Assembly: GCA_964016885.1 (NCBI GenBank)
Contig: CAXHJY010001555.1
Location: forward strand, 1-64,000
Direction: 5' to 3'
DNA: 64,000 nucleotides
Source: Eledone cirrhosa
Lineage: Eukaryota
The notes below the pieces were generated by a model. That model was not told the origin of the DNA. It saw nothing but the letters and a program-made list of their open reading frames with translations, and made no database searches. Each line of letters opens with the position of its first letter. The stretch's first letter is position 1. Of the stretch, positions 17,513 to 43,733 are shown one piece after another. A program made the position numbers and the translations under genes.

Positions 17513-17629
17513 TTATTGACACGTGTTTCTATAACAGTTACATAACCTAAAACAGCTATCTACAAACTTTTAGTTATGCAGACATTCAATATTTCAATGT
17601 TATTGTTTACTGTCATTTCATCAGAATAA
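17513..17629 (-). ncRNA. Hammerhead with expanded (88 nt) stem II domain
   Basis: Reverse complement of 20529-20645. Confidence 0.75.
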
Positions 17630-18579
17630 TATTACTGAGGACCTATTTAGTTTTTATAGAGAATATTAGGAGGAAGGGGTGAAGTTGTTAGAAGAATAGT
17701 TGAAGGAGTGGTTTTTCGATAGCAGTGAGAATTCTTGGTGGCAGTGATTAATTAGATTCCCATCTGTTGTTTTGACATTTTTTATAGAATATATTATTGG
17801 TTATTTTTCTAAATCTATAGAAGGATTAGAGATAGTAAAGATATGCGTGGTTGGTTTTGTGTTTGCACTTAACATTCAGACTTAAATTTTTCTTTCAAGT
17901 GTACGTATTCTTTCACCCACGCATTCACACACAAATATATTTGCACACCTCTACAAAATACATATACTCACAATTCACATATTCATACTTACATATATAT
18001 ACACATGCATACACATATATATACACACATGTATTCATGTACATACATACGCGCTCATGTGTATACATTTTCATACTCAACTTATCTTTATATATACACA
18101 CGTATAGACACACACATATATACATACATACTCTAGTCCATGTGTACACACATACACATACATACACATCCATATACACATACATACATACACATATATA
18201 TATATACATATATACATATACATATATATACATATATATATATATATATATACACATACACATATACACACATATACACACACACATACATATATATATA
18301 TATATATAAGCACTTTAATACATGAATACACTTACATCTAACTATACACATCAAACATATATATATATTTACTTATTTATATACATTTTCACATATATAT
18401 ACATACTTATGGACGTTTTTAGACACATTCATTATCGCATATTTGTACCTATTCTCATCAGCATATCTTTTCATTATTAGTATGGTAATTTAAGGTTATT
18501 AATATATGTTGAGAAGAGATTGTTTTTATATTTTTTTCTAACTAGATTAAGGTTTATATAGTTGGGGGATGTCCCTCTT

Positions 18580-20192
18580 TTATGTAATATTCTGCTTGTA
18601 GTGGGAAAAAAGGGTTTTAGTTCTGTGACGGCAGAATAATGTTCGTTCAATTCTGTTATTCAGCAGTTTCTTCTTGTGTGTGATTATGTAATAAATCTCA
18701 AGATTACACAATTTGCAGAAATTTTGGCTCCTGGAAAAGCTCTGGGTTTTAGCTAATTTTTCCCATTTTAGGGTAAACTTTTGATTGCTATCCCTGAGCG
18801 TCCAAGCTTTTTCTGCTAAAGTTGTTACATTTCTTTGGCTCTGGTGTTTTATTGAGTAAGAATGCCTATACAATCGAGATTTAAACGATGTTGCCGTTGA
18901 TCCCACGTAATACCACTCGTTGCCTCCGGATTTAATGGTACACTTATAAATAATATTTTTTTCCAGGCAGTTATTGCCGAGGGGGCAGTTGTCAGGATAG
19001 GTGCAGTTACAGTTGTGTACGTTGGGTTTTCTCTGGAGTAGTATTGCGGACGAACTTAGGTGTGGTTTATTTATGTTCTGTAGTGTATTGTCTACTGTTT
19101 TTTGGGGGTTCTTTGTACTTAAGTTCTTAGTGTTTTCGTTTAACCTTCTAGTATTGATCTTTTTTATGTGTTGTTCAAGGTTTAACGCTGTAGAGTATGA
19201 CAGTCTTATAGTGGTAGGGTTTAGGATTTTGTGGTATTTGTGTGATGTGGGAAAATGTCTTTTAATTATTTTAAAGAAGAGTACTGGTAAATTTGTACTA
19301 ATGGAGCTATTGTATTCGGGGTTATACCATAAGTACTCTTTGCATCGCTTTCTATTAGTTTTGTTTGTTGGTTTACTGGTGTGCATACTATGGTAGTAAG
19401 TGTGGTTTGGTGTTGTGTTATTATATCTACCTATGTGGGATTTATTTTGGGTGTTTTGATTGTTCCCATCTATGTACTCTATTTTGTTGAGGTAGCCTGC
19501 TTTACTAAGGGCGTTATCGTAGTACTCGGCGTGTTCCTTAAATACTTGTATGTTAGAAGATAGACCCGAGATTCTAAGGGAAATATTTTTAGGGATAGAT
19601 TTAATTATAGAGATGGGGTGGTTAGACCCAACATTTACGTATTTGAGATTTTCATTCAATTTATGAAACGGTTTAATCAAACCAGAGTTTAAATTGAGTG
19701 TGACATCCAGGAAGTTAACTACTTTAAGGTTGTATTCATATGTTATAGTTAGTCCTATTTCGAGTAGTAGTTTTCTTATATCTTTGCGTAGTTTTTCTAG
19801 TTTTTGGTTATTAAGGTTTTTAGCTAGGAGGAGAACATCGTCGCGGTATATTCCGTCGTGGAGATTGCTGAATTTTTCCTGGAGTCTAAAGGCGATAAAT
19901 AACCCCACAATATCAGTTATTTCCGCCGAATCGTTAGAGCCCATTGTTATGTCAAAGTTAGAGGGTCTATCTTTACGTACCCAATAACTGTTCTCAAATT
20001 TGACTATAGATTTCCTAGCTTCTAATATAATCTTAATTTCATCGTTTGTAAGGTCGGAGTTATCCTTAGCAAACTTAATGGCTCTATTCAAAGTTTCAGG
20101 TGATATCGATGAGTAATATTCATCGATATCAAACTGGATAAACTTAGATTTATTCTTATTGCTAATGCTATTAAACCATCTTATTGCTTCTT
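18580..20192 (-). CDS. PLE reverse transcriptase plus C-terminal GIY-YIG endonuclease (N-terminus lost; about 537 uninterrupted codons)
   Basis: Motifs FDIDEYYSSI, MGSNDSAEITD, GIYRDD, VNFLDVTL, SNHP; linker CNCTYPDNC (CxCx5C); IIYKC..YYVGST..FKSR..H; CKLC; LLN; CRH. The first ~38 aa of the 575-aa ORF call come from the inverted pLTR. Confidence 0.93.
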
Positions 20193-20528
20193 GAGGTGTG
20201 CAAATATATTTGTGCAAATATATTTGTGTGTGAATGCGTGGGTGAAAGAATACGTACACTTGAAAGAAAAATTTAAGTCTGAATGTTAAGTGCAAACACA
20301 AAACCAACCACGCATATCTTTACTATCTCTAATCCTTCTATAGATTTAGAAAAATAACCAATAATATATTCTATAAAAAATGTCAAAACAACAGATGGGA
20401 ATCTAATTAATCACTGCCACCAAGAATTCTCACTGCTATCGAAAAACCACTCCTTCAACTATTCTTCTAACAACTTCACCCCTTCCTCCTAATATTCTCT
20501 ATAAAAACTAAATAGGTCCTCAGTAATA

Positions 20529-20645
20529 TTATTCTGATGAAATGACAGTAAACAATAACATTGAAATATTGAATGTCTGCATAACTAAAAGTTTGTAGAT
20601 AGCTGTTTTAGGTTATGTAACTGTTATAGAAACACGTGTCAATAA
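20529..20645 (+). ncRNA. Hammerhead with expanded (88 nt) stem II domain
   Basis: TTATT-CTGATGA-a ATGACAGT...ACTGTTAT a-GAAA CACGTG TC-AATAA: stem I TTATT/AATAA, palindromic stem III, GUC triplet. Confidence 0.78.
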
Positions 20646-20795
20646 ATTCCTTTCAACTAAACTGTATCCATTCAAATCTTTCTATTTTTCTCCGGATTAC
20701 TTTTGGAACTACAACTGGAACCGTCGAGCAAACTCTACGTGAGCTGATAATCTACTGTGTGTAATATTTATATTACAACACAACGGAAAAAACTG

Positions 20796-41496: not shown

Positions 41497-41604
41497 TCCT
41501 GCCGAGGTTAACTTTGCCTTTCATCCTTACGGGGTCGATAAAATGAAATACCAGTAATGTACTGGATAATTGCTGGCCTTGTGCCAAAAGTAGAAACAAT
41601 TATT
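41497..41604 (+). mobile_element. 5'-truncated SINE (family A)
   Basis: gccgaggttaactttgcctttcatccttacggggtcgataaa...gtagaaacaattatt. Confidence 0.8.
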
Positions 41605-42359
41605 ACTCGGAGCATAGCTTCATCGAGTGCTTGGCTGCATATTCCTAATTGTATTCCGTTGCCTGGCTACAGTTGAAACTTCGATTTTACTAAACTTCCA
41701 TTCGTATATATATATATATACATGCGTACTTCTGGTAGGATTCTAGAATCTTTCAGTGATTTGTAAAACGCCAGAGGTCTATTCAGCACCGTTGTGGTTG
41801 ATATAGCATTTTTGGGTGTATGATAATTGAATAGCTCTAGATATTTGAGAATACCTTTGCCACGAGCTTATTTACACTTCGAAATTGATTTTAGCACTGA
41901 GATATTTTTGGTACATGTTTGTCAGCTGGGTTTTTACTATCTATAATCTAAAGTAAAAAAAAAAAATGGTTCCTATTTCTCAGGAAATAGGAAATAACCC
42001 AGAAATAGGGAATAACCCCGTTTATTGACAAAATTAATTGCTTGACTTGTACCCACCGAGGTGAGACTTTGTGGCAAACAATAAGTTCCTCTCTTTCCTC
42101 GCAATCAGTTGTCAATTTTTCAAGACAGCAGCCACGTTTGAATTTCTGTAGTTATTGCAAACGTTGGTAGGTTTCTAATTTAGACATGGAATGTGTCAAA
42201 AGCGATGCAGGTATATATATCTATATTATATATATATATATATATATATATATATATATAAACAAATTTAACTCGAAAGTAGAGTTTTGAAACGCGAATG
42301 TATAAGATAATTTTAACATCTTGACTTTTTGTTTATATATATATATATATATATTATAT

Positions 42360-42506
42360 GTAGTAGAGTGGGTAATAGGAGAAAGTATGACACCGACGGC
42401 AGAGCTCAAGCCGTTTCGACGGCAATTTCTGGACCAGAAATAGCCGTCGAAACGGTTTGAGCTCTGCCGTCGGTGTCATACTTTCTCCTATTACCCACTC
42501 TACTAC
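42360..42506. mobile_element. Near-perfect 147-bp palindromic MITE
   Basis: gtagtagagtgggtaataggagaaagtatgacaccgacggcagagctc...gagctctgccgtcggtgtcatactttctcctattacccactctactac, with about 2 mismatches. A second copy lies at about 36040. Confidence 0.8.
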
Positions 42507-42870
42507 CCTAAGTATTGAGTACTCTGGTGCGTTATGGTCCATCTGGTTCCTTACCATAACTCCTTCGTTGTGTATATATAATATATATATATATATAAAC
42601 AAAAAGTCAACAGGTTAAAATTAACTTCGTTTATCCATATTCACTGTTACATATAATTCAGTGATAAGCCTTACACAGCAGCTATGACCTCATCAGACAA
42701 CTAGAATGTGAAGAGAAAAAACAGAAAAACATAACGATGGAATAAAGTTTACTGCTGTTATTTAGATTTTTTTAATATGCTCAGCGCTAAAGCTTGTTGT
42801 TATCTCAAAGCACTGGTCGCATATATATATATATATATATATATATATATATATATATATATATATATAT

Positions 42871-43733
42871 AGAAAAGATGAATATAAAATGAAAGTGCTT
42901 TTTTTGAAAAGGAATTTATTAGGTATTGACATATGTTTCTGTAACAGACGGAATACCTATGTATCGCTGCTTGCGTAATCATATAATGTTAGCAAGTATT
43001 CGATAGCAAATGTATAATCAGTTGTCACTTCTTCAGAGATTTTGGATAAACCGGATAAAATCAGAAAAATTGAAGTATTTATATTAGTAATAGGGGAAGA
43101 AGAGAGGGGATAGTATATGACAGATGGTAATTCAATTTACTGTTAAACAAGTATATAAAGGGTTTCTGATGAGAATACCATGAGTAAATGGTTCATTTTA
43201 TCTAAATAAGAATTTTTGGGAGTGCCAATTTTAATCTCTACTTGACCAATTGGACAGTGGACAGGGCTGGTCATTTGGTGTAGTAGTATTAATTATAAAG
43301 TGTCAATTGGGGAAGGGGGAGATTTCGATTGCTGCTGAATAACATCAATGCTAGTAGCCAGCTGGTATATGCATTAGGGAATTGAATTAAGAAATCAGAA
43401 ATCTCATTTTATCTATAGCAGTTTATATTAAATGGTAAATAATAGAAGAGTTGATTGAATTAAGACTAATAGAGAATGTTAATATCTATTTTGACAATCA
43501 AACGGAGATATAGACAGGCGTTCAATCCTGGTAGTATTTATAATATGAAAATGTAGATTTTAAGCGATGGTTACAGTATAACGATCGCTCTATTCTGTTA
43601 TTTAATAAAATGTTTTTGGATTTCATAATACAAAATAATTCTACATTACATAATTTACAAAATTCCTGTCCGATGGAATATGAGGGGCGCAGCCGCTATT
43701 ATATCCCATTTTAGGTGAAATTGTTGGTTATTT
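42871..43733 (-). mobile_element. Short 3' fragment of a third CxCx5C-type PLE family
   Basis: The minus strand at about 43535-43733 encodes NNQQFHLKWDIIAAAP..FCKLCNVELFCIMKSKNILLNNRIERSLYCNHRLKSTFSYYK, homologous to the C-terminus of the 18580 ORF. It ends ...atcttttcta into (TA)n. Confidence 0.85.
42923..43041 (-). ncRNA. Hammerhead with expanded (90 nt) stem II domain; stem I decayed
   Basis: CTGAAGA-a GTGACA...TGTTAC a-GAAA CATATG TC, with an internal hairpin tatcg/cgata and cttgc/gcaag. Confidence 0.65.

Follow-up and report, generated by a model that had tools for sequence, protein, structure and literature searches.

In a 64,000-nt stretch of the Eledone cirrhosa genome (GenBank assembly GCA_964016885.1, contig CAXHJY010001555.1, positions 1 to 64,000; the whole stretch is referred to below as the window), hammerhead ribozyme cores with an extended helix II were located in the pseudo-long terminal repeats (pseudo-LTRs) of Hydra-clade Penelope-like elements (PLEs). 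This long-armed PLE hammerhead is a real, abundant and apparently undescribed variant. The new feature is a two-module rod of 82-92 nt, found in a protein-defined subclade, with an insert sequence that has drifted to near-background identity. PLE reverse transcriptases (RTs) are the closest relatives of telomerase, and the variant bears on their choice of RNA and on the role of the hammerhead. In the favoured reading, the rod with its two internal loops is a likely docking site for the RT-endonuclease, which would switch on a dimer-dependent hammerhead, a proposal to which we give an even chance.

Hammerhead cores in the window

Five matches to the type I core pattern with a helix II insert of 88-90 nt were found in the window, compared with none in any of 100 shuffles. 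All five carry CUGANGA, GAAA and NUH in type I order, with CUGANGA-to-GAAA inserts of 88, 88, 90, 90 and 90 nt in window order:

17518..17624, minus strand: family A hammerhead core, type I, 88-nt helix II, sense to the open reading frame (ORF)
after C at 17518, minus strand: predicted cut site of this core
20534..20640, plus strand: family A hammerhead in the inverted copy, insert at 20541-20628
37349..37457, minus strand: family B hammerhead, 90-nt helix II, inverted copy
39947..40055, plus strand: family B hammerhead in sense orientation to the ORF, helix II of 90 nt
42928..43036, minus strand: family C hammerhead, 90-nt helix II, weak stem I

The first-pass annotation had placed five copies from three families at near-identical coordinates, giving no strand for the family C core, and its 88-, 90- and 90-nt inserts with a palindromic stem III were recovered in families A, B and C. 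Because each mirror copy is an inverted duplicate that has lost the 5' part of the element (475 nt at 100% and 208 nt at 97% identity), the independent sample is three families; the window cores represent three sister families, not five independent cases.

The predicted fold of each insert is one rod closed beside the core, with folding z-scores of -4.5 (A, both copies), -3.4 (B, minus strand), -1.0 (B, plus strand, with two substitutions) and -2.7 (C). The rods close through the helices given in the first-pass annotation, on a mismatch at position 10.1/11.1 that is A.A in A, C.A in B and A.A in C, as had been claimed. The basal helix is well formed in A and B (predicted pair probabilities of 0.86-1.0). 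Stem I runs to 5 bp in A and 4 bp in B, while no more than a single contiguous pair forms in C. In each family, stem III consists of an 8-nt palindrome, with predicted duplex energies of -10.3 (A), -6.4 (B) and -7.0 kcal/mol (C). The short open stem I has no loop I and no conserved distal loop II was seen; PLE minimal hammerheads are described as lacking a loop I/loop II contact.

Abundance and arm length across the genome

A search of the 3.0-Gb genome with a pattern that fixes the core, counted by insert length and stem III class, gave about 29,000 long-armed cores versus 617 in reversed controls. For one stem III class, 1,604 cores had inserts of 14-44 nt (control 96), 6,231 of 45-74 nt (control 90), 13,680 of 75-105 nt (control 69) and 612 of 106-136 nt (control 84), the last bin looking mostly like chance pairing; the second class added 9,005 cores with 76-106 nt inserts (control 458). 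Descriptors built for short stems can therefore miss most hammerhead cores, given about 29,000 long-armed cores against the 1,604 with 14-44 nt inserts in one class. The expectation that standard searches would miss these arms was supported in that published spacers of 7-17 nt, as given in the available text of PMC8557442, would not catch inserts of 47-105 nt. Rfam returned no hammerhead hit on five own-genome long-arm loci, with two short Hydra controls also unmatched; for the whole window, only microRNA-like repeat noise was present among the matches listed (150 of 639).

The 105 distinct inserts of at least 40 nt in the fetched loci formed 33 clusters. Arm length is family-specific and ranges from 47 to 105 nt genome-wide, beyond the short helix II (3-8 bp) of PLE minimal hammerheads. 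Arms of 82-92 nt belong to one subclade, while other families have 47, 58-62 or 94-105 nt, some of them branched. The first-pass idea of 88-90 nt as a general length rule was thus too narrow, a near-constant length being seen only in the 82-92 nt subclade, where the arm stays within these limits although the stop-to-core spacer ranges from 392 to 963 nt. In the branched family D (L022, L089 and L271) and in HO1 (L236), helix II has 83-97 nt and a junction with two hairpins; these families show no nested module pair (see below), folding z-scores as low as -6 and no linked ORF. A short-armed core with a 20-nt insert and a 4-bp stem I was observed in the window at 13289-13326 (minus strand), the inverted copy of its repeat lying at 16381-16560.

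Covariation identifies the distant GAAA as the core partner

Over 33 hand-anchored clusters, 109 of 132 stem I positions were paired, compared with a mean of 63.8 and a maximum of 87 when arms were swapped. For the basal part of helix II the figure was 68 of 77, versus 44.8 with arms swapped between clusters; in ten less related families it was 59 of 70 versus 43.5, with two-sided changes at six of seven pairs. Both helices were present in 14 of 26 own-genome cases (sampled as the first 30 unselected loci) and in none of 119 pattern matches in viral contigs, which were rejected as chance. Neither helix was imposed by the search pattern, and their covariation establishes the distant GAAA as the true partner of CUGANGA. 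Stems I, II and III enclose the core with covariation, stem I of family C being weak. Insert identity between families is 46-56%, versus 44.9% for shuffles.

A repeated internal-loop module in the rod

The rods share a module that was absent from the first-pass annotation: a 3x2 internal loop in which A-N-U of the 5' strand faces A-G of the 3' strand, with a covarying helix that closes it. Its positions in the inverted copy of family A, as read from the sequence, are:

A at 20560 and AG at 20610-20611, plus strand: module 1
A at 20572 and AG at 20601-20602, plus strand: module 2

Two nested modules 10-12 nt apart were found in 9 of the 15 clusters with inserts of at least 75 nt, versus 0-1.7% of shuffles, and in 2 of the 119 chance matches from viral contigs. 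The strict two-module test was passed by four of six family A members. Sixteen clusters of the second stem III class were used as a held-out set. Among them, family HO3 (90 nt) has both modules in 3/3 members and HO0 (99-105 nt) has one module in 18/19; the branched families have no nested pair, and several singleton clusters are chance hits. When A, B, C, E and HO3 were aligned by MAFFT without anchoring, the module bases fell into invariant columns. This conserved module makes a selected domain more credible. The loop may resemble a bulged-G (S-turn) motif; a reading of the module as an 11-nt receptor, checked by eye, was rejected as the helix does not continue in that register.

The arm might instead be selected at the RNA level, stabilising the active dimer in place of a loop I/loop II contact, either through coaxial stacking on the palindromic helix III or through arm-to-arm contacts between internal loops. 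We consider this unlikely. In its favour, a short open stem I and a palindromic stem III offer no place for a canonical tertiary contact, the repeated loops share one face of the helix, and strong basal helices are predicted for A and B. Against it, module 1 is 15-26 nt from the core, too distant for a stem I of 4-5 bp, its position differs between groups (14 in the 58-62 nt group versus 33-42 in the 97-105 nt group), and the distal loops vary and are rich in A and U.

Families B and C also show an 8-nt complementarity between the 3' strand of module 1 and the cut site or the bases just after it (window 40024-40060 and 42920-42970), at the same insert position with different bases. This pairing may represent an off conformation in these two families. 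Of 27 groups, 2 have such an alternative hairpin (P 0.03 and 0.013); it is not a general feature.

Host elements and the protein tree

Hydra-clade proteins are described as having RWK and DKT motifs, a CxCx5C linker, CxxC and CxH, and a GIY-YIG endonuclease without CCHH (Craig et al. 2021, PMC8557442, in its available text). The full-length copy of family A (L071) consists of a 3597-nt unit with a hammerhead in each of its two pseudo-LTRs and an intact 773-aa ORF that carries RWK, DKT, the CxCx5C linker, CxxC and CxH as well as, at its C-terminus, a GIY-YIG without CCHH; the full-length ORF of family C (L068) agrees with the same description. Partial pseudo-LTR tandems, inverted truncated copies and (TA)n ends, all present, correspond to the Hydra-clade PLE layout. 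Family A is young: 40 hits out of 453 candidates were scored and every one of them was 100% identical. A family-specific pattern counted 2,578 copies. The window contains the following parts of these elements, in repeat and ORF listings otherwise swamped by (TA)n:

17473..17947, minus strand: 3' end of element A, matching 20211-20685 in inverted orientation at 100% identity
18583..20202, minus strand: family A RT/GIY-YIG ORF, 5'-truncated, 540 aa, with CxCx5C linker, CxxC and CxH, no CCHH
20211..20796, plus strand: inverted 5'-truncated copy of element A with a long tail, whose end lies in (TA)n some 155 nt beyond the cut site
37774..38121, minus strand: family B endonuclease fragment, inverted copy
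38153..39528, plus strand: family B broken RT/endonuclease ORF, pieces 51-71% identical to family A
43537..43683, minus strand: family C C-terminal endonuclease fragment, 59% identical to A

Hydra ORFs are linked to the hammerheads of families A, B, C, E, K, F47 and HO0 by at least two copies each, and to those of G and HO3 by weaker evidence. Families H, I, J and D and the 58-62 nt group had no ORF link in the fetched loci, yet such families share PLE-type copy ends. The upstream ORFs in L074, L089 and L278, near-identical to one another, were dropped as unrelated insertions. The link between the L064 ORF and its hammerhead was dropped as well, since that family's 3.5-kb unit lacks the core. 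A reading as non-LTR retrozymes, short non-coding tandem units each with a hammerhead, disagrees with the Hydra ORFs joined to seven families and with the PLE-type ends of those that have no ORF link. Pfam gave no match for two full ORFs. A metagenome scan with a single protein gave nothing, and an alignment-based scan did retrieve loci. Family A pieces occur in contigs of four of the six listed runs, from three organisms, although such contigs cannot show ends or cleavage.

A FastTree protein tree of 53 rows, 32 of them from metagenomes and several endonuclease-only, united A, B, C, E, G and HO3, the families with two modules, in one clade (local support 0.999), with A, B and C as each other's closest relatives (0.99). 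All own-genome rows form one clade (1.0) against the 32 metagenome rows, and this clade also includes 20-nt, 47-nt, 94-98-nt, 97-104-nt and no-hammerhead families. The RT-endonuclease of the two-module clade has two insertions of about 25-40 aa (L071:1246-3564), after the thumb and before the linker, which are missing from most outgroup proteins and from the no-hammerhead family.

A core was found in 46 of 79 metagenome Hydra loci (38 distinct, inserts of 10-39 nt), and 9 of 14 further outgroup Hydra loci had inserts of 11-31 nt. Two outgroup hammerheads (L108 and L136) carry a U3-A8 core variant, and Hydra-clade animal retroelements were seen within several bacterial genome bins (L412-L425), probably as host contamination.

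Another explanation of the arms is neutral accretion, in which loop II tolerates insertions, RT fold-back builds hairpins, selection acts on the basal helix only, and the shared loops and length are relics of one ancestor. The two-module families with a linked ORF are indeed a single clade, lengths form a family-specific series of 11-105 nt in linear and branched shapes, and Hydra families with short arms or with no hammerhead live side by side in this genome and transpose there. Nevertheless, the loop bases are invariant while the adjoining paired bases drifted to near background, module spacing is constant at 10-12 nt, and the loop also occurs in the separate 99-105 nt clade (the 18/19 members of HO0); simple fold-back is expected to give perfect hairpins, not the same asymmetric loop twice. 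Neutral accretion is accordingly given a low probability.

At the 10.1/11.1 position, only 1 of 11 own-genome families is paired, in place of a G10.1-C11.1 consensus. The first-pass emphasis on this unpaired position as special did not survive comparison, since the 38 outgroup Hydra hammerheads have U.U in 18 cases, G-C in 14 and A.A in none, and many Hydra rows of File S2 in PMC8557442, as far as this file is available, have U.U as well; just the purine A.A is unusual. A natural U.U at this position is known and supports more cleavage than other mispairs (PMC3088659, in part).

Copy ends, poly(A) signals and the proposed mechanism

The ends of copies fall into two groups, 40-70 and 150-200 nt beyond the predicted cut, and families that lack an ORF link show them too. 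In 23 of 33 clusters an AATAAA or ATTAAA lies within 22 nt of the cut, versus 5 of 1149 control windows. The poly(A)-signal-like hexamers in the window are:

20641..20646, plus strand: AATAAA of family A, overlapping the 3' strand of stem I
40060-40065, plus strand: AATAAA of family B
42920-42915, minus strand: AATAAA of family C

Since the signal also lies near 12 of 38 outgroup cores, it is a tendency of the clade and not a feature of long arms.

These ends and hexamers, together with the mismatch (A.A or another) that 10 of 11 families have at 10.1/11.1 and the predicted misfolding of family C, would also be compatible with a motif that no longer cuts, core and arm being kept as a structured signal that acts in cis on poly(A) site use or on the start of reverse transcription. 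We regard this as very improbable. A motif without catalysis would hardly account for the covariation of stem I and the palindrome in stem III, natural U.U at 10.1/11.1 supports cleavage (PMC3088659, in part), and the anole element copies uncut RNA, yet its hammerhead cuts (PMC11167929, in its available text).

For the docking proposal, the two like loops, one turn apart and far from the core, are most simply read as a protein-binding face. Helix II has grown into a paired rod of 82-92 nt with two A-N-U / A-G loops one helical turn apart, and the RT-endonuclease bound to the rod would fold and activate a ribozyme for which cleavage is predicted in the dimer only. Within a tandem transcript, two copies may pair via the 8-nt stem III palindrome to give active cores, in keeping with the dimer activity and palindrome-based dimer model described for PLE hammerheads (PMC4209133, in part). 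Most transposition would proceed from uncut RNA, which is suggested as the main template by copies that run through the cut site. This fits the uncut-template pattern of the anole PLE, whose hammerhead is reported to cut only with the PLE protein and for which uncut RNA is the main insertion substrate (PMC11167929, available text). Cleavage just 5' of AAUAAA could then either remove the poly(A) end or release a unit-length RNA. A narrower version, put forward tentatively and in itself doubtful, is that one animal lineage of Hydra-clade elements evolved the module within the hammerhead as a new RNA unit that can be repeated; present once or twice with one-turn spacing, it may be the specific binding site that loads the telomerase-like RT on its template and gates cleavage versus polyadenylation. 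If true, a cis-recognition element of a Penelope-like RT would thereby be defined for the first time.

A number of results weigh against a selected docking rod. With regard to structure, the core was imposed by the search pattern in the genome-wide counts, the stem I and basal helix covariation was obtained with hand anchoring, and RNAalifold on a MAFFT alignment gave 0 consensus pairs, which is attributed to visible one-column register slips and is still a negative. When family C is folded with its flanks, the prediction favours a rival 8-bp hairpin that includes the cut site, leaving the basal helix a probability of 0.02. With regard to the module, its definition was derived from the same sequences that were first scored, its closing pairs (20/20 and 28/30) are partly circular, a single module is frequent by chance (41/119), and a MAFFT alignment of 21 sequences does not bring the modules into one register. 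Two modules occur in just 1 of the 16 held-out clusters, none of nine family D members with branched arms has the module, G replaces A in module 2 of family B, and the young 88-nt variant of family A in the window, which has 3 nt fewer beside module 2, failed the strict test. Finally, a very active Hydra family (L202:957-4488; G000:C1:437.20 Mb) with a 784-aa open frame, 3.5-kb tandem units and 79 near-identical ORFs scored has no hammerhead core and no Rfam hit in its untranslated region, indicating that the ribozyme is dispensable in the clade. Overall, the earlier suggestion of a selected RNA domain is supported by pairing kept despite sequence turnover, to which the conserved loop module is added; the fixed length did not stand as a general rule, and RT binding, dimer formation and cleavage are putative.

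Other features of the window

A fragment at 53950-55309 (minus strand), related to the no-hammerhead family, contains no core. A different PLE with a CCHH-type GIY-YIG endonuclease is represented by a fragment at 33130-33870 (plus strand). Near-perfect inverted-repeat elements of 120-170 nt, resembling miniature inverted-repeat transposable elements, lie at 42369-42496, 43741-43864, 44874-44963 and 49508-49589.

Comparison with known systems

The long-armed architecture was not found in a literature search with Repbase/Dfam and most supplements outside its reach. In their available parts, PMC13725137, PMC7229834, PMC6765202 and a 2026 retrozyme preprint either describe short helices II or are silent on helix length. 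Of the systems with separated or enlarged cores, the discontinuous mammalian Clec2 hammerhead (Martick et al. 2008, as reviewed in PMC6155905, in part) likewise has core halves far apart, lies in a 3' untranslated region and has a suggested role in poly(A) control, but it is of type III, has a variable helix I insertion of 150-1500 nt and is not part of a retroelement. PLE-X1_sMoe from Selaginella (PMC8557442, available part of File S2) has an enlarged stem II of 9 bp with a 35-nt loop and is marked non-canonical; it is one plant endonuclease-minus family of about 54 nt, and no conserved module or multi-family radiation is described there. Half cores 35-50 nt apart are also mentioned in that paper's available text for some Naiads.

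PAc, a Poseidon element of the anole (Frangieh et al. 2024; PMC11167929), likewise has two copy ends downstream of its ribozyme. It belongs to another clade, and its short stem II overlaps the ORF start, with no long arm described in the available text. The PLE minimal hammerheads of Cervera and De la Pena (2014; PMC4209133, in part) share the type I core, the pseudo-LTR location, the palindromic 15.2/16.2 pairs and loop 3, the dimer model and, apparently, the lack of a loop I/loop II contact. Their helix II, called "larger than usual", has 7-8 bp and a conserved G10.1-C11.1 pair, whereas the rod described here comprises some 30 bp or more, and 10.1/11.1 lacks a pair in most cases.

Among the closest known systems are also the Hydra hammerheads of Craig et al. 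(2021; PMC8557442, in its available text and File S2), which have the same protein clade, (TA)n targeting and 3' pseudo-LTR position, and likewise a short stem I, a small self-complementary stem III and an often unpaired 10.1/11.1. They are called canonical there and reported as universal in the Hydra clade, a picture to which the long arms, the no-core family and the 20-nt family do not conform. All 26 Hydra rows in the available File S2, including one octopus family, have a stem II of 3-7 bp with a loop of 3-10 nt; in contrast, helix II here has 47-105 nt, with two conserved internal loops in one subclade. A single protein clade offers a natural series, from no hammerhead through arms of 20, 47, about 60, 82-92 and about 100 nt, that includes young, intact families and a small conserved loop open to mutation.

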